Notes: generated by a model from the letters alone, not told the origin. Counted from the stretch's first letter, positions 20,271 through 52,057 are shown. The stretch: DNA of 64,000 nucleotides from an uncultured Solirubrobacterales bacterium (GCA_963785085.1 CAWAUD010000013.1:7700-71699), one strand, 5' to 3'. Made by a program: numbers and translations.

Positions 20271-21238
20271 ACGCACGGCGCGTGGCCGTCCTCAAGGGCG
20301 GGCAATCCCTCGAGCGGGAGGTCTCGCTGCGATCGGGCAACCGCGTCGAGGACGCTCTGGAGGAGCTCGGCGCGGACGTCGTGGCGATCGACGTCGACGC
20401 GACGCTCGCGCGGCGCCTGCGGGAGACGGAGGCCGAGGTCGCCTTCATCGCGCTGCACGGCCGGGGCGGCGAGGACGGCACCGTCCAGGAGATCCTCGAG
20501 ATCATCGGCATCCCCTACACGGGCTCCGGAGTGCTGGCCTGCATGCGCTGCATGGACAAGGTGCTGACGAAGCACAAGCTGATCGGGAACGGGCTCCCGA
20601 CACCTGATTTCTTCGCGTTCAACGAGGTCGCCTTCAAGGAGTTCGGGGCCGCCGATGCGCTGCCGGCGATCGAGGAGCGGCTCGGCTTCCCGCTCGTCGT
20701 CAAGCCGGCGGCTCAGGGCTCGGCGTTGGGGATTCGTTTCGCCGGGGCCGCGAGCGACGTGCCCGAGGCGCTCGTGTCCGCCTTCAGCTACGACGACCGG
20801 GTCTTGCTGGAGCGGCACATCAGCGGCCGCGAGCTGGCGGTCAGCCTGCTCGAGCAACCGGGCGGAGGCGTGCAGGCGCTGCCTGTCGTGGAAGCCCGCC
20901 CCCGCGAGGGCTACCGGTTCGACTTCGAGGCCCGCTACGAGATCGGCAAGACCGACTACTTCTGCCCCGCCGACCTGCCCGGCGACGCCACCGAGCGGGC
21001 GCAGGAGCTCGCCGTGCAGACCTACGAGCTGCTCGGCTGCGCCGGCTTCGCCCGCGTCGACATGATCATGGACGCGGACGAGCAGTTGCACGTGCTGGAG
21101 GCACAGGCGATTCCGGGCATGACCGAGACCAGCCTGCTCCCGCAGGCGGCCGAGGCAGCGGGGATCAGCTTCAGGGACCTGGTGGAGCGGCTCGTGGATC
21201 TAGCAGTCGAGCGGCGTCAGGCTGCCGCTACGGCTTAG
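20267..21238 (+). CDS. ddl: D-alanine--D-alanine ligase (paralog 1, DdlB-like)
   Basis: The ATG overlaps the aminotransferase stop (ATGA). MNARRVAVLKGGQSLEREVSLRSG..FIALHGRGGEDGTVQ..PYTGSGV..VVKPAAQGSALG..RFDFEARYEIGKTDYFCPA..GFARVDM..EAQAIPGMTETSL. Confidence 0.9.
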   Translation: MNARRVAVLKGGQSLEREVSLRSGNRVEDALEELGADVVAIDVDATLARRLRETEAEVAFIALHGRGGEDGTVQEILEIIGIPYTGSGVLACMRCMDKVLTKHKLIGNGLPTPDFFAFNEVAFKEFGAADALPAIEERLGFPLVVKPAAQGSALGIRFAGAASDVPEALVSAFSYDDRVLLERHISGRELAVSLLEQPGGGVQALPVVEARPREGYRFDFEARYEIGKTDYFCPADLPGDATERAQELAVQTYELLGCAGFARVDMIMDADEQLHVLEAQAIPGMTETSLLPQAAEAAGISFRDLVERLVDLAVERRQAAATA

Positions 21239-21990: not shown

Positions 21991-22860
21991 TCAGGCGGCC
22001 ATACGCCCGCGCAGCGCGAGCGCCAAGCCCTTGAGTTCCGCGAGGTCCTCGAAGGGGATCTCGACCGTTCCGCCGCGGCGGCGGAGGCGCACGCGAACGT
22101 CTCGTCCGAGCGCCGCCGACAGCTCCTCCTCGGCAGCCCTCTGCGTGGCGGAGACGTCAGCCGGCACCGGCCGCAGGCGCTGGGGCGCCGGGCTGGGCTC
22201 GGAGGCCGACGAGCGGGCCATCGCCTCGGTCTCGCGCACCGACCAGCCGCGGTCGCGGGCATCGCCGGCGAGCTTGCGCTGGGTCATCCGGTCGCGCGCC
22301 TGCAGCAGCGCGCGGCCATGGCCCTCCGAGAGCACGCCCGATTCCAGCATCGAGAGCACGTCGTCGGGCAGGTCGAGGAGCCGGATCAGGTTTGAGATGC
22401 CAGCGCGGCTGCGCCCGCAGCGGCGGCCGACCTCCTCCTTCGTGAGGCCGAGCCCGTCGACCAGCGCAGCGCATGCCCGGGCCGCTTCGACCGGGTTCAG
22501 GTCCTCGCGCGCCATGTTCTCGATCAGCGCCAGCTCGAGGCGCTCGTTCTCCTCGGTCGTCCGGACGACCGCCGGGATCCGGTCGAGGCCCGCCATCCGC
22601 GCGGCGCGCAGACGGCGCTCGCCGGCGATCAGCTCGAACCTCCCGCCGGCCGACGGCCGCACCAGGATCGGCTGCAGCACGCCGCGGGAACGGATCGAGT
22701 CGGCCAGGGCGGCGAGCTCCGGCTCCATGAACCGCTTGCGCGGCTGAAGCGGGTTGGCGTCGATCAGGTTCGGCGGGATCTCCTGGAAGTTCGCCTCGTC
22801 GCGCTCCTCCGGCGGCGGGAGAATCGCAGCCAGGCCTCGTCCCATTCCACGCTCAGCCAC
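21991..22860 (-). CDS. parB: chromosome partitioning protein ParB (Spo0J)
   Basis: GMGRGLAAIL.., IDANPLQPRKRF, LADSIRSRGVLQPILVR, ELIAGERRLRAARMAG, HTH LTKEEVGRRCGRSRAGISNLIRLL. The GTG at 22860 is preferred (AAGGAG 10 nt upstream, 8-nt overlap with parA). The track ORF starts at 22896. Confidence 0.9.
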   Translation of the reverse strand: MAERGMGRGLAAILPPPEERDEANFQEIPPNLIDANPLQPRKRFMEPELAALADSIRSRGVLQPILVRPSAGGRFELIAGERRLRAARMAGLDRIPAVVRTTEENERLELALIENMAREDLNPVEAARACAALVDGLGLTKEEVGRRCGRSRAGISNLIRLLDLPDDVLSMLESGVLSEGHGRALLQARDRMTQRKLAGDARDRGWSVRETEAMARSSASEPSPAPQRLRPVPADVSATQRAAEEELSAALGRDVRVRLRRRGGTVEIPFEDLAELKGLALALRGRMAA

Positions 22861-23611
22861 GTTCTGCGACCTCCTTGGCCATCTCGAAGTAGGCATCCGA
22901 CCCGGCGCAGTGCGGATCGTGATGGATCACCGGCCGGCCGTAGCTCGGCGCTTCGCCGATTCGCACGTTGCGCGGTATGACGGTGCGCATCACGAGCGAC
23001 GGGAAGTGGCGGCGCAGCTCCTGCTCCACGTCCTGCGCCAGGCGCGTGCGACCGTCGTGCATCGTCAGGAGCATCCCGGCGATCTCCAGCCGCGGGTTCA
23101 GCTCGCGCTGGATCAGCGAAAGCGTGTCGAGGAACTGCGCCAGCCCCTCGAGCGCGAGATATTCGGCCTGCACCGGAACGATCACGCGGTCGGCCGCCAC
23201 CAGAGCGTTCACCGACAACGGGCCGAGCGACGGCGGGCAGTCGAGGATCACGTACTCGTAGCGGTCCTGGATCGGCGCGATCGCCTCGCCGAGACGGCGC
23301 TCGGAGCCGGGCATCCGCGGCAGCTCGACCGTTGCGCCGGCGAGGTCGGCCGTCGAGGGAACGACCGCGAGGTTGGCGACGGCGGACGGGACCACGGCTT
23401 GGTCCACGCGCGAGCCCCCGAGCAGGCACGTGTACGTGTTGTGCTCGTGGCCGCGCGGAAGACCGAGCGCGATCGTCGCGTTGCACTGCGGGTCGAGGTC
23501 GAGCAGCAGCGTCCCGTAACCCGCCTCGGCGACGCAAGCGGCGAGATTCACGGCGGTGGTGGTCTTGCCGACCCCACCCTTCTGGTTTGCGACTGCGTAG
23601 ACGGTTGCCAT
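22853..23611 (-). CDS. parA: chromosome partitioning ATPase ParA (Soj)
   Basis: Intact 252-aa ORF with the deviant Walker A NQKGGVGKTTTAVNLA and LLLDLDPQCNAT, VILDCPPSLG. Confidence 0.93.
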   Translation of the reverse strand: MATVYAVANQKGGVGKTTTAVNLAACVAEAGYGTLLLDLDPQCNATIALGLPRGHEHNTYTCLLGGSRVDQAVVPSAVANLAVVPSTADLAGATVELPRMPGSERRLGEAIAPIQDRYEYVILDCPPSLGPLSVNALVAADRVIVPVQAEYLALEGLAQFLDTLSLIQRELNPRLEIAGMLLTMHDGRTRLAQDVEQELRRHFPSLVMRTVIPRNVRIGEAPSYGRPVIHHDPHCAGSDAYFEMAKEVAERG

Positions 23612-23690
23612 GACGTGGCGAAGATAGCCCCGGGCTCAGTCGGAACCCGGACCCGAAGAGAAGTTCGGAGCCGAACCAATTTCTCCTCCA

Positions 23691-23718
23691 CCGCCTACCG
23701 CCTACCGTCTACCGTCTA
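23691..23718 (-). repeat. tandem heptamer array, 4 units (minus strand TAGACGG TAGACGG TAGGCGG TAGGCGG); the first TAG is the rsmG stop codon
   Basis: Plus strand: CCGCCTA CCGCCTA CCGTCTA CCGTCTA. On the rsmG sense strand the four TAGs fall in frames 0, 1, 2, 0. The array runs straight into TGGAGGAG. Confidence 0.9.
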
Positions 23719-24414
23719 AGCCAACGGCCGCTTTCGCGCTCGGCCCGGCCGGCGCGGATAACCCTCGGGAAGGGGCGCGGTCTTGCGATACACGACCAAG
23801 CGCGTCGCGGTCCCCTCGAGCCGTTCGTCCTCGGCGCCCCCAAATCCCTCCGGCGTCAGTCCGAGCAGGTCGGCCGCCCGGGCGCCGCGGTCGAGCTCAT
23901 CCGGATCCAGGTTCCGCTTCCAGGCGACCATGACCCCGCCCGGCCGCAGCAGGGGAGCCGCATACTCCGCCAGCACCGGGAGGGAGTCGACCGCGCGCAC
24001 GACCGCCGCGTCGTAGGCCTCTCGGCCCTCGCCGGCGGCCCAGTCCTCGACCCGCTCAGGCACGGCGCGAGCATTCCGCAGGCCCATCGCATCCGCAGCC
24101 GCGCCGATCCACTCGCTCTTGCGGCCCGCCGACTCGACCAGATCGACGCGAGCGGCGGGGAGCGCAACCGCGAGCGGCAATCCCGGCAGTCCCGCACCGC
24201 TCCCGATGTCGACGATCGTAGACGCCGACCGCACGTCCTCGACCGCGAGCGCCAGCAGCGAGTCCGCCACGTGGACCTCCCAGATCTGCGAGGGGTCGGT
24301 GACCGAGGTGGGGGCGTGCGGATCGCCGCTGAGGCGCTGCGCGAGGCGCTCGAGTTGGTCGGGCGCCGCCGGAGGCAGCCGCCAGCGGGCGGCCAACTCC
24401 TGTGCGCGTTTCAC
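23716..24414 (-). CDS. rsmG: 16S rRNA (guanine527-N7)-methyltransferase RsmG (GidB)
   Basis: Intact 232-aa ORF (GTG start): VDIGSGAGLPGLPLAV.., VESAGRKSEW, AVVRAV. Lies in the conserved jag-rsmG-parA-parB order. Confidence 0.88.
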   Translation of the reverse strand: MKRAQELAARWRLPPAAPDQLERLAQRLSGDPHAPTSVTDPSQIWEVHVADSLLALAVEDVRSASTIVDIGSGAGLPGLPLAVALPAARVDLVESAGRKSEWIGAAADAMGLRNARAVPERVEDWAAGEGREAYDAAVVRAVDSLPVLAEYAAPLLRPGGVMVAWKRNLDPDELDRGARAADLLGLTPEGFGGAEDERLEGTATRLVVYRKTAPLPEGYPRRPGRARKRPLA

Positions 24415-24422
24415 GTGGAACG
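24407..24422. promoter_or_regulatory. candidate parS centromere site
   Basis: CGTTTCACGTGGAACG matches the conserved parS palindrome tGTTTCACGTGAAACa at 13 of the 14 core positions. It overlaps the rsmG start codon. It is the only such match I found in the window. Confidence 0.6.
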
Positions 24423-24445
24423 TTGCAGTTCTGTTGCAGTTACCG

Positions 24446-25153
24446 TCAGCCGTGCCCGACGGGGGTGATCACGATCCGCCGGAAGGGCTCGTCGCCTTCG
24501 CTGTGGGTCTCGACGGTGGGCTGCTCGGCCAGGTAGTTGTGCACGATCTTCCGCTCCTGGGAGCTCATCGTGTCGAGCTCCACCGGCCGGCCGTACCGCA
24601 GCGCGTCCGCGACTCCCCGGTCCGCCTGGCGCTCGAGCATCGAGCGGCGGCGCTCGCGATAGCCGCCCGCATCGACGACAACCTGCTTGCGATCCTCCGC
24701 CCCGCGATATGCCGCCTGTGAGCAGACGAACTGGATCGCGTCGATCGTCTGGCCGTGCTTGCCGATCAGGAGGCCGAGCTCCTGTCCGCTGATCTCGACG
24801 TGCAGCTCCTCATCGGTTTCCCGCACGTCGACGCTGGCCCGCACACCGAGGTGGGCGAGCGTTCGGCGCACCAGCTCCCGCGCCCGCTCGGCCGGCTCGT
24901 CCGGCCACTCGAAGTTCTCCTCGGCATCTCGCCAGGCCTCGAGGTCGGCCACTGCGACGACCCGTACGACGGCGTCCTCGCCCTTGCCCTCCTCGAGAAC
25001 GTCGAAGCTCACATGCTCGACCGCGAGGCCGGGGTAGGACAGCTCCAGCTCCTTCATGGCCGTCCACTTGGCGGCGCCGAGACTGTCTCCCTCCGCCTCG
25101 ATCCGCGCTACACCACCGTCTCCGGCGCCCCCGTTTCCGCGCGGCTCCGCCAT
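24446..25153 (-). CDS. jag: Jag/KhpB-like RNA-binding protein (KH plus R3H domains)
   Basis: Starts at Met43 of track ORF 24446..25279. ..LHVEISGQELGLLIGKHGQTIDAIQFV.. is the KH domain. ..ERRRSMLERQADRGVADALRYGRPVELDTMSSQERKIVHNYL.. is the R3H domain. Starts 4 nt after yidC. Confidence 0.85.
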   Translation of the reverse strand: MAEPRGNGGAGDGGVARIEAEGDSLGAAKWTAMKELELSYPGLAVEHVSFDVLEEGKGEDAVVRVVAVADLEAWRDAEENFEWPDEPAERARELVRRTLAHLGVRASVDVRETDEELHVEISGQELGLLIGKHGQTIDAIQFVCSQAAYRGAEDRKQVVVDAGGYRERRRSMLERQADRGVADALRYGRPVELDTMSSQERKIVHNYLAEQPTVETHSEGDEPFRRIVITPVGHG

Positions 25154-25157
25154 GGCC

Positions 25158-25974
25158 CTACCTGCGCCGGCGCTTCTTCTTGCGCGGGGGCCGGGGCGGC
25201 GCCTTGGTGGCCGTCCCGCCACCACCGCCTCCAGCGCCGGCAGCGGCCGGCGCTCCCCGTTTTCCGTTCTCGCCCACAAGCGCCGCGGCCGGCTGCGCCG
25301 ACACGGGCACGGGTGGCGGGGACAGGCGGCGGACGACCAGCTGCTGCCCGAGCGTCCAGAAGTTCGTCGTGATCCAGTACACGATCAGGCCGGCCGGGAA
25401 TTTGGGAATCAGCGCCGCGAACACCAATGGAAGCAGCAGGAAGATCCGCTGCTGGTTCTTGTCGGCGGTGGCCGTCATCACGAGCGTCGACGCCATCTGG
25501 GATGCGATGAACAGCACGATCAGGACGACCAGCACGGCGCCATGAGCCGGCTTGGTGATGTCGTTGATGATCAGGAAGCCGTTGTTCCCGGTCGCCTGCA
25601 CCTGCTCCTTGAAGCTGCTGCCGTTGAACAGCTGATAGAGCGCGAGGAAGACCGGGAGCTGCAGGAGAAGCGGCAGGCAGGAGGCGAACGGGCTGAGGTT
25701 GTTCTCCTTGTAGAACGCCATCATCTCCTGGTTCATGCGCTGGCGATCGTTCTTGTACTTCTCCTGGATCTCCTTGACCTCGGGCTGAAGCGCGCGCAGC
25801 GCGTTCATCGACTTGACCTGCTTGATGGTCAGCGGGCAGGATCGCCAGGCGCACGAGGATCGTCAGCACCACGATCGACAGCCCCCATCCGAGCCCCACG
25901 TCGTCGTGCAACCACGTCAGGAGGTTGTCGAACAGGTCGATGAGCGGCTGCAGGATGCTCGCGTAGACCAGCAT
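25158..25974 (-). pseudogene. yidC: membrane protein insertase YidC (short form), one indel near 25835
   Basis: N-terminus: MLVYASILQPLIDLFDNLLTWLHDDVGLGWGLSIVVLTILVRLAILP. Removing one C of a CCC run joins it to LTIKQVKSMNALRALQPEVKEIQEKYKNDRQRMNQEMMAFYKENNLSPFASCLPLLLQLPVF..GLIVYWITTNFWTLGQQ (ORF 25158..25808). Basic tail. Confidence 0.9.
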
Positions 25975-26222
25975 CAGCGCCTCGCCCCGAAGACCCGCTG
26001 GGCCCCCACCGGGTCAAGCCCGCCGGAGCTGAAGGGGTTGCAGCGCAGAAGCCGCCAGCCGGCGAGCACCACGCCGCGCGCCGGACCGTAGGCCTTGACG
26101 GCCTCGACGGCGTAGGCGGAGCAGGTCGGCTCGTACTTGCAGCGCCGCGGGAACAGCGGCGAGATCAGCCGCTGGTACAAGCGCACGGGCGCCAGGACGA
26201 CCCTGGTGGCCAAAGACCTCAT
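25974..26222 (-). CDS. yidD: membrane protein insertion efficiency factor YidD
   Basis: 82-aa ORF: LYQRLISPLFPRRCKYEPTCSAYAVEAVKAYGP..GWRLLRCNPF. Start and stop overlap rnpA and yidC. Confidence 0.9.
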   Translation of the reverse strand: MRSLATRVVLAPVRLYQRLISPLFPRRCKYEPTCSAYAVEAVKAYGPARGVVLAGWRLLRCNPFSSGGLDPVGAQRVFGARR

Positions 26223-26641
26223 GCCGCCTCCGCCGAGGAGGTGCCGGCATCGCCGTCCTGCGCGCCGGTCAATCGGCCGGCAAGGTCATCGAGATCCTGC
26301 CGCAGCCCCTCGAAGCCGTCACCGTCGACCAGCGTCGTGACCGACGGACGCGCAACGACCACGAAGTCATGCCGTGCCGGAAGCTCATCGATCGACCAGA
26401 AGGCCTCGCGGATCCGGCGCTTCACGCGATTGCGCTCCACCGCGCCGCCCACCTTCCGGCCGACCGACACGCCGAGGCGAACGTCGGTGTCCTCGCCGTC
26501 CTCCTCGTCTGCACGCGGGAACGCATAGAGAACCAGGTGGCGGGACGCGACCGAGCGTCCCTTCCTGTAGACCCGATCGAAGTCGGCACTCTTCGACAGC
26601 CGCGGACGTCGATGCCGCGTCTCCCGGTGGGAACGCTCCAC
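26219..26641 (-). CDS. rnpA: ribonuclease P protein component
   Basis: The GTG at 26641 lies within track ORF 26219..26863. RLSKSADFDRVYRKGRSVASRHLVLYAF..VGVSVGRKVGGAVERNRVKRRIREAF. Sits between rpmH and yidD. Confidence 0.85.
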   Translation of the reverse strand: MERSHRETRHRRPRLSKSADFDRVYRKGRSVASRHLVLYAFPRADEEDGEDTDVRLGVSVGRKVGGAVERNRVKRRIREAFWSIDELPARHDFVVVARPSVTTLVDGDGFEGLRQDLDDLAGRLTGAQDGDAGTSSAEAA

Positions 26642-26655
26642 CTGACCAGCCCCCG

Positions 26656-26790
26656 TCAGACGGTCAGCCGCGAGCGCCCCTTCTTGCGGCGGCGCTGGAT
26701 CGTCAACCGGCCGGCGCGAGTCCGCATACGAGCACGAAAGCCGTGCGTACGGGCGCGCTTGCGCTTCTTGGGTTGGTACGTTCGCTTCAA
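26656..26790 (-). CDS. rpmH: 50S ribosomal protein L34
   Basis: Not in the ORF track as a separate entry. TTG start at 26790 (GGAG 8 nt upstream). Translation is (M)[43 protein letters not shown], a textbook L34. Confidence 0.9.
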
Positions 26791-26848
26791 GGAGAGGACT
26801 CCGGTGAGGAACCCCGCGCGGCGTGCAGGGCAGGAAATCGAGCGTCCG

Positions 26849-26854
26849 AGTATA
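26849..26854 (-). promoter_or_regulatory. candidate -10 hexamer (TATACT) for rpmH-rnpA-yidD-yidC
   Basis: Plus-strand agtata is TATACT on the minus strand, 59-64 nt upstream of the rpmH TTG. No clear -35. Confidence 0.3.
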
Positions 26855-26889
26855 GACAGTCACCCCCGAGGCGCCGGGCCGCCCTCGGC

Positions 26890-27043
26890 AGTCCGCAACG
26901 ACGTCCGCAACCTTTTCGGCGCGATTTCCGCCAACGCCGGAATTGCACGCACCAACTGCGATTTCTGCGCTCTGGGCGCTGCTAGCATCGCACGCCCTTC
27001 CAGGCCTAACGGCCTACCGCAAACTGCGATTTCTGCTCTTGGG
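26890..27043. promoter_or_regulatory. repeat-rich rpmH-dnaA spacer: 2x GTCCGCAAC (degenerate DnaA-box-like) and 2x AACTGCGATTTCTGC
   Basis: GTCCGCAAC is at 26890-26898 and 26902-26910 (12-bp phasing, one mismatch to the GTCCACA core). AACTGCGATTTCTGCgCTCTGGG is at 26953-26975 and AACTGCGATTTCTGCTCTTGGG at 27022-27043. A third GCGATTTCCGC is at about 26920-26930. Confidence 0.45.
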
Positions 27044-27059
27044 GGCGGCAACGGAGAGC

Positions 27060-28397
27060 GTGGAAACGCATACACAAACCGACGCCGGACGCGCCTGGGC
27101 CGACGCCCAGGAACACCTTCGTCGCAGGCTCCCACCCGAGGTTCTCGGCACCTGGCTCGACGATGTGAGGCCCAGGTCCATCTCCGGATCGACCCTCTAC
27201 ATCCAAGCTCCCAAGCGAACCAGGGAATGGGTTCGGCGGCGATTCGGCGCGCAGATCTCACAGGCGGTGGCAAGTGCGGTGCCCGCGGTGACAGCGGTCG
27301 AGTGGCTCGATCCCGACGAGACCGACGCCGGACCGGCGGCCCCGGCCAAGCCCCGCACCGAACTCGCCGCCGGCAAGACCTTCGGCCAGTACGTGATCGG
27401 CGCTCCGAACCGGTTCGCCCACGCCGCCGCGCTGGCGGTTTCCGAGCTCCCAGGGCACGCCTACAACCCACTCTTCCTTCACGGGCCGCACGGAATCGGC
27501 AAAAGCCATCTTGCGCAGGCGATCGGCAACTACGTCCGCTCGCACGACCGTGAGATGACCGTCGTCTACACGAACGTGGACGCCTTCACCACAGAATTCA
27601 CAACCGCGCTGCGCGCCGGCAACGTCGATGCCTTCAAGGCCGTCTATCGCCACGCCGACGTTCTGATAGTCGATGACGTCCAGCTGTTCGAGGATCGGCC
27701 GCGTACCGTCGACGAGTTCTTCCACACCTTCGACGACCTGCATGGACGCGGCGCGCAGATCATCCTCACCGCAGATCGAAAGCCGGCCGGGATAACCAAC
27801 CTCCACGAGCGGCTGCGAGACCGATTCGAGGCGGGCCTGGTGGTCGAGCTCGCGCCGCCGGACTTCGACATGCGGCTTGCGATCCTGAGGAAGCGCGTCG
27901 GAAACGACGACCCGCCGGTCGAGCCGGAAGCCCTGGAGCTGCTGGCCCGAATCGTCTCCCCCAACATCCGCACCCTCGAGGGCGCCTTGATCCGGGCCCG
28001 GGCGTTCGCATCCCTCACAGAGCAGAAATTGACCACGGACGTGGCAAGCCACGTCATCTCGAGCCTCGGCAGCGAGGACATCCGAGAGGGATTTCCAACG
28101 CCGACGGTCGAGCAGATCCAAGAAGCCGTGACAAAGGTCATGGGAGTCGGAATTGCCGATCTACGCTCGAAAAGACGTGGCCGTCAGGTCGTTTATGCTC
28201 GCCAGGTCGCCATGTATCTGACCCGCGAGCTCACCCCTCTGTCCTTTCCCACCATCGCCCGCAGCTTCGGTGGACGCGATCACACCACCGTCATGCACGC
28301 GCACAAGCGAGTCGCCGGCGACCTGCTCTCGGATGCCACCACTCGCTCCCTTGTGGATTCACTGGTCAAGCAGTTGGGGACGAAGTCCGCCCCATGA
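27060..28397 (+). CDS. dnaA: chromosomal replication initiator protein DnaA
   Basis: The GTG at 27060 (GGAG upstream) lies within track ORF 26943..28397. Walker A LHGPHGIGKSHL, Walker B VLIVDDVQ, sensor/box VII, and a C-terminal DNA-binding domain (YARQVAMYLTRELT..SFPTIARSFGGRDHTTVMHA). Confidence 0.95.
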   Translation: METHTQTDAGRAWADAQEHLRRRLPPEVLGTWLDDVRPRSISGSTLYIQAPKRTREWVRRRFGAQISQAVASAVPAVTAVEWLDPDETDAGPAAPAKPRTELAAGKTFGQYVIGAPNRFAHAAALAVSELPGHAYNPLFLHGPHGIGKSHLAQAIGNYVRSHDREMTVVYTNVDAFTTEFTTALRAGNVDAFKAVYRHADVLIVDDVQLFEDRPRTVDEFFHTFDDLHGRGAQIILTADRKPAGITNLHERLRDRFEAGLVVELAPPDFDMRLAILRKRVGNDDPPVEPEALELLARIVSPNIRTLEGALIRARAFASLTEQKLTTDVASHVISSLGSEDIREGFPTPTVEQIQEAVTKVMGVGIADLRSKRRGRQVVYARQVAMYLTRELTPLSFPTIARSFGGRDHTTVMHAHKRVAGDLLSDATTRSLVDSLVKQLGTKSAP

Positions 28398-28547
28398 GCA
28401 CCGAGCGCCGCGGGTCCACAGATCTCCCCACAGATCCCTCGAGCTCTCCACACAGCTCTTTCCGGCTCTGCGCCGGCAATCGCCATGGTTCATCCCCGAA
28501 CTTCTCCATCCATCACTCCTCTTCCATCTCCAAGGTGAAGCTCTGAG
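28398..28547. promoter_or_regulatory. candidate oriC core in the dnaA-dnaN spacer (three same-orientation TCCACA-type DnaA boxes plus a lower-GC polypyrimidine tract)
   Basis: GGGTCCACAGATC (28412-28424), TCCCCACAGATC (28425-28436; CCACAGATC repeated at 12-bp phasing) and CTCTCCACACAG (28445-28456). Then cttctccatccatcactcctcttccatctcc (28501-28531), about 50% GC and almost G-free on the top strand. The gene-orientation switch between rpmH and dnaA supports an origin here. Confidence 0.55.
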
Positions 28548-29666
28548 ATGAAGATCACGGCAAACCGAACCACCTTTCTCTCCGAGCTGCAGCTCGTCGG
28601 ACGTGCAGCCTCGACCCGCACCTCCATTGCCGCTCTCGGCGGGATCCTGATCGAGACCGGCGAGGGCAATGCCGCTCTGGCGGCTACGGATGCGGAGCTG
28701 GCGTTGCGCTCGAACGTCGAGTTGGAGGTGGAGCAGCCCGGCCGGGTTCTGCTTCCAGCGCGCCTGTTGATGGAGATCGTCCGGGCGCTGGATGGTGAGT
28801 CGGTGACGCTGGAGCACCGTCCCGACCAGGGTCATGTGGCCGTCATGTCCGAGCGCGCCGAGTTCCACATCCGCACGTTGCCGGCGGAGGACTTTCCGCG
28901 GCTTCCGGATCCCGGCGACAGTGCGATGGCGCTGGCCGGCGACGTCTTCTCCGCGACCGTGGAGCGGGTCGCCAAAGCCGCATCGCGTGATGAGACGCGC
29001 CCGGTCCTGACCGGGATCCTGGTCTCCATGGCCGAGGGCCGGCTGCGGATGGTCGCCACCGACTCCTACCGGTTGAGCGTCAAGGAGACGGCGCTCGACA
29101 ACGGTGCTGCGACTGAGTTTCAGGCGAACATTCCCGCTCGCACGCTGCAGGAAGCCGGGCGGCTGGTGCGCGAGACGGGCGCGGACCAGGTGACCCTGGC
29201 GGCTCAGGACAATCAGATCGTGTTCGGCATCGATCGCGTCTTGTTGTCGTCGCGCCTGATCGATGGTCAATTCCCGAACTATGAGCGGCTGCTGCCGGAC
29301 TCCTTCGAGCATGAGGTCCGGGTGTCGCGGCCCGAGCTCGCCGGAGTCGTGCGGCGGGTGGGCCTGATGGCGCAGCGCAACAGCCCGTTGCGGATGCGCT
29401 TCGAGGAGGGGACGCTGACCGTATCGGCCCAGACGCCTGACATCGGCGAGGCGGTGGAGAGCATTCCCGTGCCCTTCCAGGGCGAGCAGTTGGAGATCGG
29501 GTTCAACCCGGCGTTTCTCCAGGATGGCCTCGAGAGCGTGGAGTCGGACGACGTTCAGATCAAGCTGATCAGCCCGGTGCGGCCGGGGCTGCTCGAGGCC
29601 GCCGGCGACAGCGATGCCGACGGGCGGTTTCTCTACCTGATCATGCCCGTGCGACTCAACGTGTAG
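28548..29666 (+). CDS. dnaN: DNA polymerase III beta sliding clamp
   Basis: Intact 372-aa ORF in the dnaA-dnaN-recF order, with typical three-domain clamp sequence (..ATDSYRL..LIDGQFPNYERLLP..FNPAFLQDGL..MPVRL). Confidence 0.93.
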   Translation: MKITANRTTFLSELQLVGRAASTRTSIAALGGILIETGEGNAALAATDAELALRSNVELEVEQPGRVLLPARLLMEIVRALDGESVTLEHRPDQGHVAVMSERAEFHIRTLPAEDFPRLPDPGDSAMALAGDVFSATVERVAKAASRDETRPVLTGILVSMAEGRLRMVATDSYRLSVKETALDNGAATEFQANIPARTLQEAGRLVRETGADQVTLAAQDNQIVFGIDRVLLSSRLIDGQFPNYERLLPDSFEHEVRVSRPELAGVVRRVGLMAQRNSPLRMRFEEGTLTVSAQTPDIGEAVESIPVPFQGEQLEIGFNPAFLQDGLESVESDDVQIKLISPVRPGLLEAAGDSDADGRFLYLIMPVRLNV

Positions 29667-36366: not shown

Positions 36367-36370
<4 letters not shown>

Positions 36371-38429: not shown

Positions 38430-38460
38430 CTACCGCCTACCGCCTGCCGCCTGCGGTCTC
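38430..38460 (-). repeat. tandem heptamer array between the CARDB-protein stop and the DUF4446 start (minus strand T-GAGACCG CAGGCGG CAGGCGG TAGGCGG TAG-AA-ATG)
   Basis: Plus strand 38430-38460: c ta CCGCCTA CCGCCTG CCGCCTG CGGTCTC, then a. The array spans the whole 31-bp spacer. The last unit ends 2 nt before the ATG at 38427. Confidence 0.85.
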
Positions 38461-39571
38461 ATTGCGCCGCGAACGCGACCTGATACGTCGCTGTGTTGTT
38501 GTCCTTGTTGGACTCGCCCGGCACCGGCGCGATCTCGACCGTCATCTTCGTCACAGCGCCGGCTGCTGGCTTCTCGGTCAGCGGGATGCTGACGGTCTCG
38601 GTCTGGCCTGCCGCGATCCGCGGGATGGTCTGGTCGACCTGGATCTTCTTGCCGTCGGTGATCGTGATCGTGACGGGGATGTCCGTTTCCTCGGACTCTC
38701 CTCCGTTCTGGACCTCGACGTCGAAGGACAGCTGGTCGGACAGCGTGATCCGGTTGACGCCCTGATCGGACAGCACCGTGCCGGCCGGCTGCGCGGTGAC
38801 CTTCTGCAGACCGGTCCCGTGCAGCCCGGGCGTGGCCGCCTTCTGGGTGCCGGTGCCGAGCTTCCCGAGCCGGGTGGCCACCACTTCTGGATCTAGCCAT
38901 CCGAGATCGGGGAGGAATCTCGAGGTCGGGAAGCGCTCGGTGATGCCGCGGTCGTCATAGGCGTTGTGCAGCTCCGGCAGCACGCGCTGCAGGTAGATCA
39001 CGTCACTGGCGAGAAGCGCTTGCATCTGACCCGCGATCAGGTCGATTGCCTGCTGCTTGCCCTTGTCGCCCAGGGCGGTGGGCAAGAGCTCGGCGACCCG
39101 TGCGATCGCATCCTCGCGAAACTGGAAGGACTCGACCAGGTCGTCGTTCGCGCTGTTCAGCTCGTCCGGGTGGTCGGTGCTCTTTGCCCGGTCGGTCAGC
39201 TGCTGGGCGTCCACTCGCAGCATGTTGACCTGCGTCTGAACGTCGAGCGCGTCCGCGCGGCTCGGCTTGGAGAGGACTTCGAAGAACCGGTCGCTGACGT
39301 CCTGCGAGCTGTTCACGAGCGCCCGCGTGTCGTCGGCGTATGACCGGAAGGCCCGGTCCTTGCGTGCGTCCAGGCAGCTGTTCAGCCCGAGCACGAGGAG
39401 GATGATGATCACCACGATCGCGCCGAGGCCGATCGCCCTGCGCATCCTCAGCGTCTGGGCATCGGTCGACCCACCGGCCCCTCGGCCGGCCGTCGATCGT
39501 GCGGGTCGCCTTCCTCCTTCCATAGAAGCCTTGCGGGCGGCAGTATGACGGGGAAGGCGGGCGCGATGCAC
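38459..39571 (-). CDS. membrane-anchored hypothetical protein with a C-terminal CARDB-like (Ig-fold) domain
   Basis: 370-aa ORF (GTG start; internal Met17 or Met43 also possible). TM AIGLGAIVVIIILLVLGL, a helical ectodomain, and a C-terminus VEVQNGGESEETDIPVTITITDGKKIQVDQTIPRIAAGQTETVSIPL..VPGESNKDNNTATY that resembles CARDB. Confidence 0.55.
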   Translation of the reverse strand: MHRARLPRHTAARKASMEGGRRPARSTAGRGAGGSTDAQTLRMRRAIGLGAIVVIIILLVLGLNSCLDARKDRAFRSYADDTRALVNSSQDVSDRFFEVLSKPSRADALDVQTQVNMLRVDAQQLTDRAKSTDHPDELNSANDDLVESFQFREDAIARVAELLPTALGDKGKQQAIDLIAGQMQALLASDVIYLQRVLPELHNAYDDRGITERFPTSRFLPDLGWLDPEVVATRLGKLGTGTQKAATPGLHGTGLQKVTAQPAGTVLSDQGVNRITLSDQLSFDVEVQNGGESEETDIPVTITITDGKKIQVDQTIPRIAAGQTETVSIPLTEKPAAGAVTKMTVEIAPVPGESNKDNNTATYQVAFAAQ

Positions 39572-41633: not shown

Positions 41634-42836
41634 ATGCTGAGAGTCGTCGAGGAGGCGGCGCGCACCGATACCGGCCGCCAGCGTCACGCCAACGAGGATT
41701 CCTACCTGGCTCGCTCGCCCGTGTTCGTCGTCGCCGACGGGATGGGGGGTGCTCAGGCGGGCGAGGTTGCCTCGCGCATCGCGGCGGAGTCCTTCGAGGA
41801 AGGCTTCGGGGACGGAGCTCCTGAGCAGGAGCTTGCCCGCGCGGCCCTGGCGGCGAACCGGCGGATCTTCGACCTCGCCCGGGAGGACTCGAGCCGCAGC
41901 GGGATGGGCACGACGCTGACGGGCGCTTTCGTCTCGGACGACGAGGTCAGCATCGTCCACGTCGGCGACAGCCGCGCGTACCTCTACCGCGACGGAACGC
42001 TGCGCCAGCTGACGCGCGACCATTCGCTCGTCGAGGAGCTCCGCCGGCAGGGACAGCTGACGACCGAGGAGGCCGAGGAGCATCCCCAGCGCTCGATCAT
42101 CACGCGGGCCCTTGGCCCCGAGCCCGACGTCGAGCTGGACGTGCACACGCACCAGGCGCGCCCCGGGGATGTCTTCCTGCTCTGCAGCGACGGGCTCACG
42201 AGCATGGTGCGCGAGGACCGGGTGCGGGAGATCCTGTCCTCCAGCGAAGACCTGCGCGAGGCCGCCGACCGCCTCGTGCGCGAGGCCAACGAGATGGGGG
42301 GACGGGACAACATCACGGTCGTCTGCTTCCGGCTCGGCGGGACGCCGGTCGGCGAAGCTCCGGACGACACGGGGGACCTCGGGGACACGATGACCGGTGT
42401 AAGCGCCGCCGACGTCCATGGCGATGAGGTCGTCGCAGCTGACAGACCGGAGACGGGAGACGGGAGACCGGAGACGCTTGAGCCCCCGCCGCGCCGCCGA
42501 CGGCCGCGCGATCCCGCTCGCCGGCGTCGCCGGGTCATCGTCACCGCGGTCCTGATCGGCGTTGCAGTGTTGCTGGTGGCCGGGGCGATCGGCGCCCGCG
42601 CGGCGCTGCGCAACGTCTACTTCGTCGGCCAGGACCACGGGCTCGTGACCCTGTACCGGGGCGTTCCCTACGAGCTTCCGGGCGGCATCAATCTCTACGA
42701 CACCCGGTACGTCAGCTCGGTCCCCGTCGTCCGCCTCAGCCCGGTCGAGCGCCGCCGTCTGCTCGACCACAAGCTGCGCTCGCACAACGATGCGTCCGAC
42801 CTGGTTCGGCGACTCGAGCGGAGCCGCGCGCCATGA
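41634..42836 (+). CDS. pstP: PP2C-family Ser/Thr phosphatase PstP (cytoplasmic catalytic domain, linker, TM, extracellular tail)
   Basis: Intact 400-aa ORF: RTDTGRQRHANEDS, VVADGMGGAQAGEVAS, GMGTTLTG, HVGDSRAY, LCSDGLT, GGRDNITVV. TM VIVTAVLIGVAVLLVAGAIG. Confidence 0.92.
   Translation: MLRVVEEAARTDTGRQRHANEDSYLARSPVFVVADGMGGAQAGEVASRIAAESFEEGFGDGAPEQELARAALAANRRIFDLAREDSSRSGMGTTLTGAFVSDDEVSIVHVGDSRAYLYRDGTLRQLTRDHSLVEELRRQGQLTTEEAEEHPQRSIITRALGPEPDVELDVHTHQARPGDVFLLCSDGLTSMVREDRVREILSSSEDLREAADRLVREANEMGGRDNITVVCFRLGGTPVGEAPDDTGDLGDTMTGVSAADVHGDEVVAADRPETGDGRPETLEPPPRRRRPRDPARRRRRVIVTAVLIGVAVLLVAGAIGARAALRNVYFVGQDHGLVTLYRGVPYELPGGINLYDTRYVSSVPVVRLSPVERRRLLDHKLRSHNDASDLVRRLERSRAP
42443..42477 (+). 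repeat. tandem heptamer array inside the pstP linker (CAGACCG GAGACGG GAGACGG GAGACCG GAGACGC)
   Basis: Five 7-nt units on the pstP sense strand, encoding ..DRPETGDGRPETL.. Same unit family as the intergenic arrays, but with C/G in place of the T of TAG, so no stops arise. Confidence 0.8.
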
Positions 42837-47467: not shown

Positions 47468-48472
47468 GTGGTGCTCGCGGGCGGCCGCTCGAGCGAGCAC
47501 GACGTGTCCCTGCGGTCGGGGGCAGCCGTCCTGGACGGGCTCGAGAGCGGCGGCCACGAGACCCTGCCGGTAGTGATCGGCCGGGAAGGGCGCTGGACGG
47601 CGACCGATCCGCGTACACCGGGCGAGGGCGGGGAGCGCGTCGAGGTCGTTCCGGGCGAGGGGCTGCTGGGCGCCGACGTGGCGTTCCCCGTGCTGCACGG
47701 CCCGTTCGGCGAGGACGGCACGGTCCAGGGCCTGCTCGAATGCGCCGGCGTGCCGTATGTGGGCGCGGGCGTGCTGGCCTCCGCGCTCTGCCTCGACAAG
47801 GCCGCGTTCAAGCGGATGATGAGCCAGGCCGGCCTGCCGCAGGTGCGCTACGAGGTCGTGACGCAGGCCGAGTGGTCCGCGGCCCGGTCAGCGGCGCTCG
47901 AGCGCGCAGCCACCGTGGGCTTCCCTTCGTTCACCAAGCCCGCGCATCTCGGATCGAGCGTCGGCATCTCGAAGGTCGACACCGCGGCCGAGCTGGAGCC
48001 GGCGCTGGAGCGGGCGCTCGCGCACGACCCGACGGCGCTGGTCGAGGCTGCGGCAATCGGGCGCGAGGTCGAATGCTCGGTGATCGGCAACGACAAGCCG
48101 GTCGCGTCCGAGCCCGGCGAGGTCGTCACGGTCGGAGGCGACTGGTACGACTTCGACTCCAAGTACACGGCGGGCGGCATGGAGCTGCGCGTGCCGGCGC
48201 CGATCGAGCCGGCCCAGCTGGAGCGGGTCCGCCGCATCGCGACCGACGCGTTCCGTGAATCCGGCTGCGCCGGGCTCGCGCGCGTCGACTTCTTCGTAAC
48301 CGACGACGGGCGCGTCCTGCTGAACGAGTTGAACACGATGCCCGGCTTCACCGAGACGAGCGTCTTCGCAAAGCTGTTCGCCGCATCCGGGCTCGGGTAT
48401 GTGGAACTGCTGGATCGGCTGCTGGGTTTCGCTCTGGAACGCCACGAGCGGGAAGCGGCATACCTTTACTGA
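47468..48472 (+). CDS. ddl: D-alanine--D-alanine ligase (paralog 2, DdlA-like), 5 nt downstream of pknB
   Basis: Intact 334-aa ORF (GTG start, GGGAGGA upstream): VLAGGRSSEHDVSLRSG, FPVLHGPFGEDGTVQG, PYVGAGV, FTKPAHLGSSVG, WYDFDSKYTAGG, ARVDFF, NELNTMPGFTETS. Confidence 0.9.
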   Translation: MVLAGGRSSEHDVSLRSGAAVLDGLESGGHETLPVVIGREGRWTATDPRTPGEGGERVEVVPGEGLLGADVAFPVLHGPFGEDGTVQGLLECAGVPYVGAGVLASALCLDKAAFKRMMSQAGLPQVRYEVVTQAEWSAARSAALERAATVGFPSFTKPAHLGSSVGISKVDTAAELEPALERALAHDPTALVEAAAIGREVECSVIGNDKPVASEPGEVVTVGGDWYDFDSKYTAGGMELRVPAPIEPAQLERVRRIATDAFRESGCAGLARVDFFVTDDGRVLLNELNTMPGFTETSVFAKLFAASGLGYVELLDRLLGFALERHEREAAYLY

Positions 48473-48493
48473 CCGCCTACCGCCTACCGCCTA
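48473..48493 (-). repeat. tandem heptamer array, 3 perfect units (minus strand TAGGCGG x3), filling the whole gap between two convergent stop codons
   Basis: Plus strand: TGA(ddl) CCGCCTA CCGCCTA CCGCCTA CTA(kinase stop). On the kinase sense strand this reads TAG TAGGCGG TAGGCGG TAGGCGG TCA, giving a TAG in all three frames. Confidence 0.95.
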
Positions 48494-49969
48494 CTACCGA
48501 GTAACTCCAGCTCCGAGATGGCCGCGTTCGACCTTCCGGTAGTTCCCTCGGTCAGCTTGCGTGATCCACACCAGGTAGTACTGCTTGGCCTTGCCGCGGG
48601 TGTTGAGGCGGAAGGCCTCGCGGTTGCGCGTCATCTGACCGCCGCCCACAGGCTGCCAGCCGGCGAGTGTGGCGGGCGGTCCCGAGTCTGCCGCGTAGAG
48701 CCCGAAGGTCCACCCGCTCTTCGGGGTCGTGATCCGCAGGCCGCGCGCGACCACGGGGCGGCCCGTGTCGAGGTAGACGCCGACGCCGTCCTTGATGCCG
48801 CCGAGGTCCGGCGTGTCGTAGTTCTCGGTCTCCCACGCCGTGGTCGGGTTGCCGTCGAGAGCCAGGTCCAGGTTCTCCGGGTTCTCGCTGCCATCGCCGG
48901 GGGGCGGGTCGAAGTCTCCGATGTCCTGCTCCCCGAGAGGGATGGGGGACAGGCCACCCGCCGCAGCGGGCGGGCTTTCGCCGTTCGAGTCGAACAGCAG
49001 CGCCGCCCCAAAGGCGACTGCCACCGCGATGACGACGTACATGGCCGCCATTGCGAAGCGCCGCCCCCGCATGCCTCGGCGCGCAGCCTCGGCGGGCAGC
49101 GCCTGCAGCACGGCCGTCGCCTCACCGGTCGCCTCGCCCGAGCGAGCCGCCTCGTAGGTCAGCACCTCCTCCAGGTCGCCCACGAAGTCGCCCATCGTCG
49201 CGTAGCGGTTGCGCAGCTCCTTTGCGGTGGCGCGCTCGACCACCGAGGCGAGCGCCGCGGAAACCTCGGGCCGGCGCCGCTGGACGTCCGGCAGCCCTTC
49301 GCGCACGTGTTTCATCGCAATGCTCACCGCGCTGTCGGCCTTGAAGGGAACCTCGCCGACGAGCATCTCGAACAGCACGATTCCGAGCGAGTAGACGTCG
49401 GACTGCCCGGTCACCGGCTCGCCCATCGCCTGCTCGGGCGAGACGTAGTCCGTCGTCCCGATGACCCGGCCGGTCCCGGTCAGCTGCTCGAACTCGAGTC
49501 CGCTGGCGATGCCGAAGTCCGTCACCTTGGCGCGGCCCTCCTCGTCGAGGAGCACGTTCTGCGGCTTGACGTCGCGATGCACGAGCCCGCGCTCGTGCGC
49601 GGCCTGCAGAGCCCGCCCGATCTCGATGGCATAGGCGACCGCCTCGCTCACCGGCAGCGCGCCATCGCGCCGGATGCGGTCCTTGAGCGTCTCCCCGTGC
49701 ACGTGCTCGAAGACGATGTAGGGCTGTCCCTCGTCCTCGCCCGCGTCGATCACCATCACGACGTGCGGGTGCGAGAGCTGCGCCACCGTGCGCGCCTCGC
49801 GCCGGAAGCGCTCGAGCGAGCTCGGGTCCTGGGACACCGCCGTGTGCATGATCTTCAGCGCGACGTCGCGCTCGAGCGTCTCGTCGAACGCCTTGTAGAC
49901 CGTCGACATGCCGCCCGAGCCGATCTTGGCCTCGATCCGGTAGCGACTTGAGAGTGTGGTGCCGATCAA
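48494..49969 (-). CDS. Ser/Thr protein kinase with an extracellular discoidin-like (F5/8 type C, galactose-binding-like) C-terminal domain
   Basis: Probable TTG start at 49969 within track ORF 48494..50278. GSGGMSTVY..ALKIM, HRDVKPQN, DFGIAS, a TM (AMAAMYVVIAVAVAFGAALLF), then ..ALDGNPTTAWETENY..GVYLD..RGLRITT..WTFGLYAAD... Confidence 0.8.
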   Translation of the reverse strand: MIGTTLSSRYRIEAKIGSGGMSTVYKAFDETLERDVALKIMHTAVSQDPSSLERFRREARTVAQLSHPHVVMVIDAGEDEGQPYIVFEHVHGETLKDRIRRDGALPVSEAVAYAIEIGRALQAAHERGLVHRDVKPQNVLLDEEGRAKVTDFGIASGLEFEQLTGTGRVIGTTDYVSPEQAMGEPVTGQSDVYSLGIVLFEMLVGEVPFKADSAVSIAMKHVREGLPDVQRRRPEVSAALASVVERATAKELRNRYATMGDFVGDLEEVLTYEAARSGEATGEATAVLQALPAEAARRGMRGRRFAMAAMYVVIAVAVAFGAALLFDSNGESPPAAAGGLSPIPLGEQDIGDFDPPPGDGSENPENLDLALDGNPTTAWETENYDTPDLGGIKDGVGVYLDTGRPVVARGLRITTPKSGWTFGLYAADSGPPATLAGWQPVGGGQMTRNREAFRLNTRGKAKQYYLVWITQADRGNYRKVERGHLGAGVTR

Positions 49970-50031: not shown

Positions 50032-50902
50032 ATGATGGAGATTCGCTGTCACACCGATCCCGCCTGCCCGTGGTCGTGGGCGATGGAGCCCGCGATCCGC
50101 GGTCTGATGGTCTCTTTCGGGGATGGTCTGCGATGGCGTTTCGTGATGGGAGGGCTCGGCCGTGACCTGCTGGACGAGGGCTCCGGGCCGAGCCGGCAGC
50201 TCGGCTCCGCTGCCACCGCGCGTCTGGTCCGCGAATGGCTGACCGCCGCAGAGGTGGCCGAGGCACCGCTCGACCCACTGGTCTGGTTCGAAAGCCCGCT
50301 TAGATCGACGTTCCCGGCCTGCATGGCCGTCAAGGCGGCCGCCGAACAGGCCCCGGACGGCGGTTATCGCTACATACGCCGCTTGCGCGAGGGGATTCTC
50401 TGCGAGCGGCGGCGCCTCGACCACGCCGAGCCGCTGGTCGAGGAGGCGCGCGCGGCCGGGCTCGACGTGGAGCGCTTTCGCATCGACCTGCGCTCGCATG
50501 GGATCACGGAGGCGTTCGCCGCGGACCTCGACGCAACCGCGGCGCTCGCGGAGGAGGAGCCCGCCGGCGGCGACGTGCACGGTTCGAGGACAGCCTCGGG
50601 CGCGGTGCTTCCGACGCTCGTGATCTCGAACGAGGCCGGCGAGCGGCGGGTCCTGGTCGGGCTCCATGGTCTTGGCGAGTGTCGCGCGGCTGTCGAGGAG
50701 CTGGGCGCGACCGCGACCGTCGAGCCGACGCCGACTCCCGAAGCTCTGATGGAGAGATTCGGACGGGTCACGACTCAGGAGGTCGTCGAGATCTGCGTTC
50801 TGCCGGGACCGCGGGCAGCCGCGGAACTGTGGCGCCTGGCGGGCGAGTGGAAGGTGCGCGGTGAGGCGGTGTCTTACCGGGGAGCTGTGGGAGAAGGCGT
50901 AG
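50032..50902 (+). pseudogene. DsbA-family thioredoxin-fold protein (CPWS active-site variant), one indel near 50870
   Basis: MMEIRCHTDPACPWSWAMEP..MGGL..FPACMAVKAA.., from the real part of track ORF 49948..51468. Deleting one base near gtgtcttacc restores ..GEWKVRGEAVLTGELWEKA* with its stop at TAG 50900-50902. The uncorrected frame reads through the repeat array. Confidence 0.65.
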
Positions 50903-50970
50903 GCGGTAGGCGGCAGTCGGCAGTCGGCAGTCGGGAGTCGGCAGACCCGCAGACCGCAGACCGCAGACGG
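50900..50970 (+). repeat. tandem heptamer array, 10 units (TAGGCGG x2, CAGTCGG x3, GAGTCGG, CAGACCCG, CAGACCG x2, CAGACGG)
   Basis: A 71-bp run between the DsbA-like stop (the first TAG) and the purM stop (TCA at 50971-50973). Adjacent units are identical or differ by one base. One unit is 8 nt long. Confidence 0.95.
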
Positions 50971-52057
50971 TCAGGCTTTGGCGAAGCCCTCGCTCGGCTC
51001 AGCGCGCAGGCTCTCGCTTGGGATCGTCACTACTCCTGCTTCCGCCGTAACCGTTCCGATCCGTCTGCTTCCCCGGTGGTGCTTGTTCAGCAAAGCGACC
51101 GCTGCGTCTGCATCCGCATCCGGCACTACGCAGCACAGGCCGGTGCCCATGTTGAAGACCTCCCACATCTCCGTGGCGCCGATGTTCCCCGATCGGGCGA
51201 TCAGGTCGAAGACCGGCTGCGGCTCGCAGCGGCGCGTCGATCTCGAAGCCGACCTCGTCGCTCAGGCGCCGGAGGTTCAGCAGGCCGTCGCCGGTTATGT
51301 GGGCCAGGCCGTGCACGTCCACTTTGGAGCCCAGCAGCCCGAGCGCCGCCCGCACGTAGATCGCCGTGGGCTCGAGGAGCTCGTCGGCAAGCGTCCGACC
51401 GAGCTCCTGGATGTGCTGGTCGAGCGACAGGGCGCCATCCTCCAGCAGCGCCCTGCGAGCGAGCGTGAAGCCGTTCGAATGGATCCCGCTCGACGGTACG
51501 CCGATCACCGCGTCGCCGGGTGCGACGGTGCCGCCGTCGAGGATCGCGTCCAGCCCCACGACGCCGAACGCCGCGCCGACCAGGTCGATGCCGTTGGGCG
51601 ACGGATGCCCGCGGATCATCTCCGGAAGCTGCGCCAGCTCGCCGCCCGGGATCTCGATTCGCGCTTCCTCCGCGCCGCGCCGCAGGCCCTCTCCGACCGC
51701 CGACAACACGTCCGCATCCGCGCGCTCGACTGCCAGGTAGTCCACCATCGCCAGCGGCTCGGCGCCGACGCAGATCAGGTCGTTGACGTTCATCGCGATG
51801 CAGTCGATCCCCACCGTGTCGAACCGGCCGGCCTGCTCGGCGACGATCAGCTTCGTGCCGACACCGTCGGTGCAGAGCGCGACGCCGGTGCGCTCGTCAA
51901 GCGCCAGAACGGCCGCGTAGTGGCCCGATCGCAGGACAGAGCGCCGCGGCCGCCCGGGATCGATGGCACTGAGCGCAGCGACAAGCCCGGCGAGCGCAGA
52001 GCCCGCTGCGGAAGTGTCGACCCCCGCCGCCGCATAGGAGTCGCGCGAGTGCGTCAC
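50971..52057 (-). pseudogene. purM: phosphoribosylformylglycinamidine cyclo-ligase (AIR synthetase, PurM), one indel near 51225
   Basis: The GTG at 52057 overlaps the uppP stop (GTGA). SYAAAGVDTSAAG..LCTDGVGTKL..GIDCIAMNVNDL..GAEPL..GGELAQLP..GVPSSGIHSNGFTL..HITGDG. The C-terminus continues in ORF 50971..51168 (MWEVFNMGTGLCCVV..). Confidence 0.88.

Follow-up and report, generated by a model that had tools for sequence, protein, structure and literature searches.

The window analysed here is a stretch of 64,000 nucleotides from an uncultured Solirubrobacterales bacterium (GCA_963785085.1, CAWAUD010000013.1:7700-71699), in which we studied a tandem heptanucleotide array, A5, lying between two convergent genes that code for a DsbA-like protein and for PurM. 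The locus is laid out as follows, with positions counted from the first letter of the window:

50035..50902 (start approximate), plus strand: DsbA-like gene (Thioredoxin_5, PF13743), whose stop codon TAG (50900-50902) is part of the first unit of A5
50900..50970, plus strand: heptamer array A5, the entire spacer between the two convergent stop codons, with orthologous arrays in the relatives L082 and L081
50971..52057, minus strand: purM (AIR synthase), whose stop codon TGA, read on the plus strand as TCA (50971-50973), directly abuts the last unit of A5

A5 is made up of ten head-to-tail heptamers arranged in blocks, namely TAGGCGG twice, CAGTCGG three times, GAGTCGG, CAGACCCG, CAGACCG twice and CAGACGG, after which the purM stop follows at once. 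Tandem Repeats Finder (TRF) reports period-7 arrays at this site with matches of 92-95%. Thus, both the sequence and TRF confirm what a preliminary description of this DNA had claimed, namely a ten-unit array filling the gap between two convergent stop codons, with the qualification that a single unit, CAGACCCG, has 8 nt.

The DsbA-like gene of the window carries one extra base near 50859 that breaks its frame (GTGCGCGGTGAGG, as against GTGCGGGCGAGG in the relatives L081 and L082). In these relatives, which lack the extra base, the open reading frame (ORF) ends in ...GELWEKA followed by TAG at the first unit of the array. Since their protein ends at this first TAG, the indel repair proposed in the preliminary description, which had placed the stop of the gene there, was correct. 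The purM gene, whose product has the C-terminus ...SEGFAKA, likewise contains a frame-breaking 1-nt insertion near 51226 relative to L081 and L082. Comparison with the relatives suggests that these two insertions are indel errors in the assembly or else very recent lesions and, because both flanking genes contain such insertions, the 8-nt unit of A5 may also be an indel error. Frame +0, the frame of the frameshifted DsbA-like ORF of the window, crosses all of A5 without a stop and stays open to 51468; this frameshifted ORF runs for 190 codons through A5, antisense to purM. For the purposes of annotation, such arrays are repeats and should not be called as small genes or terminators; a frameshifted ORF can continue across them.

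A family of arrays in the window

The same unit family had been noted at four other positions (23691, 38430, 48473 and 42443), and all four arrays were confirmed:

23691..23718, minus strand: array A1, TAGACGG twice and then TAGGCGG twice; its first TAG (23716-23718) is the stop codon of rsmG, and parA lies ~100 nt further on
38430..38460, minus strand: array A2, GAGACCG CAGGCGG CAGGCGG TAGGCGG TAG; its first unit shares bases with the stop codon of the gene upstream, TGA (38459-38461)
42443..42477, plus strand: array A3, CAGACCG GAGACGG GAGACGG GAGACCG GAGACGC; it lies inside the ORF for PstP (PP2C phosphatase)
48473..48493, minus strand: array A4, TAGGCGG three times; it exactly fills the 21-nt gap between ddl and a Ser/Thr kinase gene

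With each unit read in the sense direction of the gene that its array abuts, all five arrays conform to the consensus NAG-D-C-S-G (NAGDCSG), in which positions 1, 4 and 6 vary, the other letters (A, G, C and G) stay invariant at a fixed phase, and NAG recurs every 7 nt. A pattern of three such units, AGDCSGNAGDCSGNAGDCSG, has 12 matches in the 64-kb window, all in these five arrays, against an expectation of 0.01. Exact period-7 self-match runs of at least 12 bases number 4 in the window, against 0.05 expected, with 0-1 for other periods; a two-unit pattern finds just one additional site there, which is the chance level.

The placement of the arrays follows a common rule. First, four of the five are intergenic, two of them in convergent gaps (A4 and A5) and two in co-directional ones (A1 and A2), with none in a divergent gap. 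Second, each of these four starts within, or immediately 3' of, the stop codon of a gene that has the AG-containing strand as its sense strand. Thus A4 lies between the TGA of ddl (48470-48472, plus strand) and the TAG of the Ser/Thr kinase gene (48494-48496, minus strand). A2 is the sole array that also touches a start codon, its far end being separated by 2 nt from the ATG (38427) at which a DUF4446 gene starts. The remaining array, A3, encodes DRPETGDGRPET, which belongs to the linker that joins the catalytic domain of PstP to its membrane segment. The earlier statement that the G-rich strand is the sense strand in all five cases holds, but for the two convergent arrays this is automatic, so that the rule is informative only for A1, A2 and A3. 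The genome represented in the window is very compact, with gaps between genes mostly below 50 nt, and other convergent pairs overlap at their stop codons with no spacer (TTAG at 21235-21238 and CTAG at 36367-36370).

Turnover of the arrays in close relatives

Contigs of close relatives were found through homologues of the DsbA-like protein, and others carry the rsmG or DUF4446 loci. At the A5 locus, these relatives form a series, with ten units in the window, five in L082 (91% protein identity, a short-read assembly), ~3.4 in L081 (97% identity) and none in L673 (80% identity). The L082 array, which reads TAGACGG, CAGACGG and three CAGACCG before the TCA, again fills the gap exactly and has its first TAG as the stop codon. 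In L673, there is no array and the TAG of the DsbA-like gene and the TAA of purM overlap as GCTTAGAC. In two further relatives, the gap at this locus measures 74 and 62 nt.

The other loci show comparable changes. The A1 locus has ten, seven and five units in L669, L671 and L670, respectively, as against four in the window. These three contigs come from different samples and encode identical RsmG proteins that are 92% identical to that of the window. The longest of these arrays, that of L669, consists of TAGACCG, three CAGACCG, CAGACGG, CAGGCGG and four TGGGCGG. At the A4 locus, L082 has four CAGACCG units where the window has the complement of three TAGGCGG. At the A2 locus, L672, whose DUF4446 protein is 100% identical to that of the window, differs by two C-to-T changes within the array and by none in ~100 nt of flank. 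The five units of A3, which lie in a coding region, are kept in L081. As a separate observation, L670 (~1410-1522) matches L669 and L671 through rsmG and the first five units and diverges completely directly after the array, the cause being a rearrangement at the repeat or else a chimeric join in the assembly.

Thus, at A5 and A1, the locus is retained between close relatives while copy number and unit sequence vary. The preliminary description had suggested comparing copy number among strains: it differs even among near-identical strains, and L673, a relative, has no array at all. The arrays are hypervariable at the strain level: they keep their sites but not their content, as units are quickly added, deleted or made uniform in blocks of identical neighbours. 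The flanking coding sequence is conserved. The block structure of A5 and of the arrays in relatives bears out the earlier observation that neighbouring units are identical and that the unit type drifts along the array. Because L673 and the other convergent pairs of the window have overlapping stop codons and no spacer, the spacer between the DsbA-like gene and purM is a dispensable product of expansion. The series of 0, ~3, 5 and 10 units at this one locus means that the whole spacer of a convergent gene pair can be built of repeats and yet be dispensable.

We consider it probable that A5 is one locus of a lineage-specific hypervariable heptanucleotide repeat family, tolerated as a slippage product at the 3' ends of genes. 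Slipped-strand mispairing in a 7-nt register would create and resize the arrays, and selection would filter only where they survive. Sense ORFs would exclude them, 7 not being a multiple of 3 and many units carrying TAG, and promoters and ribosome-binding sites would exclude them from the 5' sides of genes; the permitted sites left would be the stretch 3' of a stop codon and convergent gaps. With the first unit holding or overlapping the stop codon and the far end fixed, a change in copy number would spare both neighbouring genes. The orientation bias may have its source in selection that disfavours sense transcripts with a C-rich, unstructured tract attractive to Rho. Among the four roles listed in the preliminary description, a hypervariable simple-sequence repeat with no function gives the best fit to the varying copy number and to the array-free locus of L673. 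Any function of the arrays is non-essential and independent of a fixed structure or copy number.

An artefact of assembly or sequencing could be suspected from the 1-nt insertions in two genes of the window, and the 8-nt unit of A5 could be an error of that kind. Against this, arrays occupy the same loci in short-read assemblies made independently from other samples (L082, L669-L671 and L672), and their length of 21-70 nt is below that of a sequencing read; the arrays are thus real, and we give this explanation practically no weight.

The unit family also recurs in relatives (L081, L082 and L669-L672). In a species-level genome collection, PurM finds its best matches in Solirubrobacterales, Conexibacter and Thermoleophilaceae metagenome-assembled genomes (MAGs), at 59-69% identity. 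The NAGDCSG pattern is absent from 80 other Solirubrobacterales loci or genomes (1.22 Mb), and no array was found downstream of purM in any of the 48 loci examined among other Solirubrobacterales, several of which have the DsbA-like gene convergent with purM across a gap of a few bases. In one of these 80 genomes, the Solirubrobacterales MAG L025 (11380-11420), TGACTAG and TGACTCG units fill a convergent gap, with the stop codon in the first unit. In another, L036 (700-790), (TCAGCAT)3 faces its own complement just 3' of a TGA stop and is capable of forming a hairpin. The NAGDCSG unit family is private to the narrow lineage of the window; since L025 and L036 carry heptamer arrays of other units in like places, the phenomenon of heptamer arrays is not.

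Unrelated contigs and rival explanations

We scanned metagenome contigs with a four-unit pattern, and viral contigs (L203-L316) with the family pattern and three permuted patterns of the same composition. The metagenome contigs gave at least 120 pattern matches, which span a G+C content of 33% to 75%, use every allowed unit variant and reach up to ~20 units; among the matches listed, none was an orthologue overlapping the loci of the window. In the viral contigs, the family pattern matched 114 stretches and each of the three permuted patterns at least 120. Since permuted heptamer arrays are at least as common there, the NAGDCSG motif is not special globally, and we rejected the idea that it is; arrays of heptamers in general are frequent. 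Three of the metagenome contigs (L092, L108 and L113; 34-42% G+C) have a common flank, TC(C/T)GTGTTTTA(C/T)ACC, directly before (C/T/A)AGTCCG arrays, which points to a dispersed element with repeats in some unrelated organism.

The genes flanking these arrays were called with a symmetric heuristic based on long open frames, with a criterion on the G+C content of third codon positions (GC3) for high-G+C contigs, so that the gene calls are rough. With these calls, half of the array-to-gene distances are 9 nt or less. Units without a stop triplet, among the metagenome matches listed, show a gene 3' end on the 5' side of the AG strand in 17 cases against 4, the same direction as that of the whole set given below. 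In the viral contigs the corresponding bias is 21 against 7 toward a gene 3' end on the AG strand, and is weaker. This asymmetry toward the stop side agrees with published work.

Several points weigh against the slippage explanation. First, the sample consists of 64 kb of one genome and six short array-bearing contigs from relatives. Second, array sites are retained between relatives whose proteins are 78-97% identical. Third, among the metagenome matches listed, 25 gene 3' ends adjoin the AG strand on its 5' side, against 5 on the other side (p = 3e-4, with the heuristic gene calls); together with the viral contigs, this bias of strand and stop codon in unrelated contigs supports a general one. 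Fourth, neutral slippage alone does not account for one unit family at all five loci and in the relatives, which leaves room for a sequence-specific factor.

Such a factor could be an oligomeric protein, for which the arrays would serve as a phased binding platform presenting a NAG triplet every 7 nt in the RNA of the 3' untranslated region or in the equivalent DNA. It has been proposed here that this would mark or protect the 3' ends of genes or block polymerases arriving from the convergent gene. The single unit family common to all loci fits this idea, as do the four bases invariant at fixed phase with positions 1, 4 and 6 free, the bias across unrelated contigs and the retention of arrays at the same loci in relatives. 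The HutP/TRAP-type spacing, with three or more NAG triplets separated by 4-nt spacers, is present in all arrays, and HutP, which reads the A and G of three such XAG triplets, is an actual RNA-binding protein that employs this geometry (PMC2425495). On the other hand, copy number at one locus ranges from 0 to ~11, the array is absent from a relative with the same genes (L673), permuted heptamer arrays are equally common elsewhere, and no candidate protein was identified, in an analysis that made no search aimed at one, HutP itself being an antiterminator of a Bacillus leader region and not a 3'-end factor. We regard a binding platform as rather unlikely. In its stronger form, the NAG-N4 phasing would not stem from slippage but would be the recognition code of a putative oligomeric nucleic-acid-binding protein that acts at the 3' ends of genes, a reading to which we give only a slim chance. 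If true, the protein could protect 3' ends or act as a roadblock between convergent genes, and the lineage-specific heptamer families of many bacteria would be the cis-elements of such systems.

The tolerated slippage product remains our preferred reading against a second rival, under which the arrays would be strand-asymmetric Rho-dependent insulators: the G-rich sense transcript would escape Rho, and the C-rich antisense transcript, (CCGCCUA)n, made by a polymerase arriving from the opposite side, would recruit it, which would end antisense read-through. Two of the four intergenic arrays do lie between convergent genes with no other spacer or terminator. In A5 and its L082 orthologue, moreover, the units proximal to each stop are richer in G than in C on the own strand of each gene. 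The arrays are predicted to be unstructured, and the orientation bias of the unrelated contigs is consistent with such a role. Against it stand the length of the arrays (21-70 nt), small for a site at which Rho would load, the C-richer CAGACCG units that L669 has beside the stop on the sense strand, and the other convergent pairs, which manage with overlapping stop codons. These considerations make a Rho insulator an improbable account of the arrays.

Folding calculations gave no significant fold. On the relevant strands, eight array regions folded as RNA had z-scores of -1.2 to +0.7 against shuffled sequences, and a hairpin was accordingly rejected. A terminator scan yielded 6 terminator-like sites against 5.1 expected, none of them at any array, and no leader terminator was found at the arrays. 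The G+C-rich hairpin followed by a U-tract that marks an intrinsic (Rho-independent) terminator is lacking at the arrays. Rfam recognised only two tRNAs in the window, and nothing in 50700-51200 even at E <= 1. A hairpin acting as the 3'-end or termination signal envisaged earlier is thus not supported.

A two-tetrad G-quadruplex was another of the roles envisaged; in RNA or DNA, it would serve as a 3'-end signal in the manner of the quadruplex-forming GGGAATC and GGGGAYT repeats. The G-quadruplex option of ViennaRNA predicts a two-layer form for GGCGG-type units (A1, A2, A4 and a test array of four TAGGCGG), for which this role could stand. It predicts none for CAGTCGG, CAGACCG and CAGACGG, which account for the whole of A3 and of both L082 arrays and for the greater part of A5. 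A quadruplex as a common property of the arrays was rejected, being limited to GGCGG units. As CAGACCG- and CAGACGG-type units are not predicted to form quadruplexes, the potential for them is not conserved at orthologous loci. Repeats of this kind would be expected to have at least four G-tracts in every array, normally of three or more G each, and the tracts here are of 2 nt only. A quadruplex signal therefore seems highly improbable.

Lastly, an all-frame stop backstop had been listed as a possible role; it would halt frameshifted or read-through ribosomes. TAG at a 7-nt spacing does hit successive frames, and A1 and A4 cover all three. The claim fails for A5, which stops only two of the three because TAG occurs in only two of its units, leaving the open frame +0 described above. 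In the L082 arrays, TAG does not recur after the stop codon, and among the metagenome matches listed many family arrays use CAG, GAG and AAG units, which contain no stop. We hold a backstop to be extremely improbable.

Known heptamer repeats and the origin region

The preliminary description knew of no described element with this architecture, but the view that there is none is wrong, since stop-proximal heptamers of Xanthomonas and Nostoc have been published (PMC4692102). The architecture is of a known kind because both Rehm et al. (PMC4692102) and MacGregor (PMC4679880) describe families of heptamer repeats. Rehm et al. 2015 (PMC4692102) reported GGGAATC repeats in Xanthomonas and GGGGA(C/T)T repeats in Nostoc PCC 7120, of 2-26 units, ~90% intergenic and at a mean distance of 28 nt from the ORF on their 5' side. 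These lie on the coding strand within 0-50 bp of stop codons or overlap them, are rare between divergent genes and are not tied to a gene class; they have no known function, and 83% are found at the same loci in a sister species with another length and sequence (PMC4692102). The NAGDCSG arrays resemble them in having a 7-nt head-to-tail unit with one family per lineage at many loci, in lying next to stop codons, in being absent between divergent genes and in keeping their loci with varying length. Unlike the Xanthomonas and Nostoc repeats, they contain GG tracts only and are not formers of three-layer quadruplexes, and within the window and the few relative contigs they show no preference for four units; the host, an uncultured Solirubrobacterales lineage, differs as well. 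What is new here is the lineage (uncultured Thermoleophilia/Solirubrobacterales) and the unit, which join the few bacteria with a private stop-adjacent heptamer family.

The cyanobacterial STRR heptamers have the units CCCCAGT, TTGGTCA and CAACAGT and belong to a phylum other than that of the window. Like the present arrays, the STRR sequences of Calothrix and Nostoc are lineage-specific tandem heptamers dispersed in intergenic DNA; they are also cited in PMC4692102. More generally, Mrazek et al. 2007, as cited in PMC4679880 and PMC4692102, found heptanucleotides to be the most abundant of the long simple-sequence repeats with 5-11-nt units in prokaryotes and enriched in large, high-G+C genomes of non-pathogens, and proposed polymerase slippage over a 7-nt contact as the cause of the unit length. 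That work is a statistical survey, and in the parts of it that these two papers cite, neither the NAGDCSG unit nor the lineage of the window appears.

In marine Beggiatoaceae, MacGregor 2015 (PMC4679880) described TAACTGA direct repeats with in-unit stops at many intergenic loci, as a rule in 2-6 copies and with no predicted RNA structure. Most of them are found a few nucleotides 5' of a start codon, and a role in translation was proposed (PMC4679880). The NAGDCSG arrays share with them the heptamers with in-unit stops, and in both the stop-containing orientation limits the overlap with ORF ends. The side differs: the TAACTGA repeats are on the start-codon side, whereas four of the five NAGDCSG arrays begin at a stop codon and A2 alone touches a start.

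The HutP sites of the Bacillus subtilis hut leader consist of XAG triplets with 4-nt spacers, in which A and G are read; two sets of three motifs flank the terminator of the 5' leader and are bound by the hexameric protein (PMC2425495). Similarly, the arrays have NAG triplets, 4-nt spacers and a 7-nt period, but unlike at the HutP sites, no cognate protein, leader or terminator was seen at the arrays of the window. The arrays also resemble the contingency repeats of phase variation in being slippage-prone tandem repeats whose copy number changes from strain to strain. Repeats of contingency loci lie in promoters or 5' coding regions, where their copy number switches expression. Here, in contrast, the arrays follow stop codons and have a fixed distal junction; since the stop lies in or before the first unit, a change in copy number shifts neither a reading frame nor the spacing of a promoter or ribosome-binding site.

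The window spans the chromosomal origin region (21991-29666), in which yidC, jag (KH/R3H), rsmG, parA and parB are encoded by the minus strand and the plus strand carries dnaA (26943-28397) and dnaN (28548-29666). The probable place of oriC is around 26.2-26.9 kb. An explanation of array orientation by the replication strand was considered and rejected: A2 is sense to its own genes, yet it would be in the lagging-strand orientation, a single case that is not decisive. Within the origin region, the stretch 3' of A1 (23640-23690, minus strand) contains a perfect GGAGGAG, a small hairpin, GTTCGGCTCCGAAC, and a T-rich run. It is nearly identical in L669 and L671 and could be a weak rsmG terminator or a piece of the parA leader.

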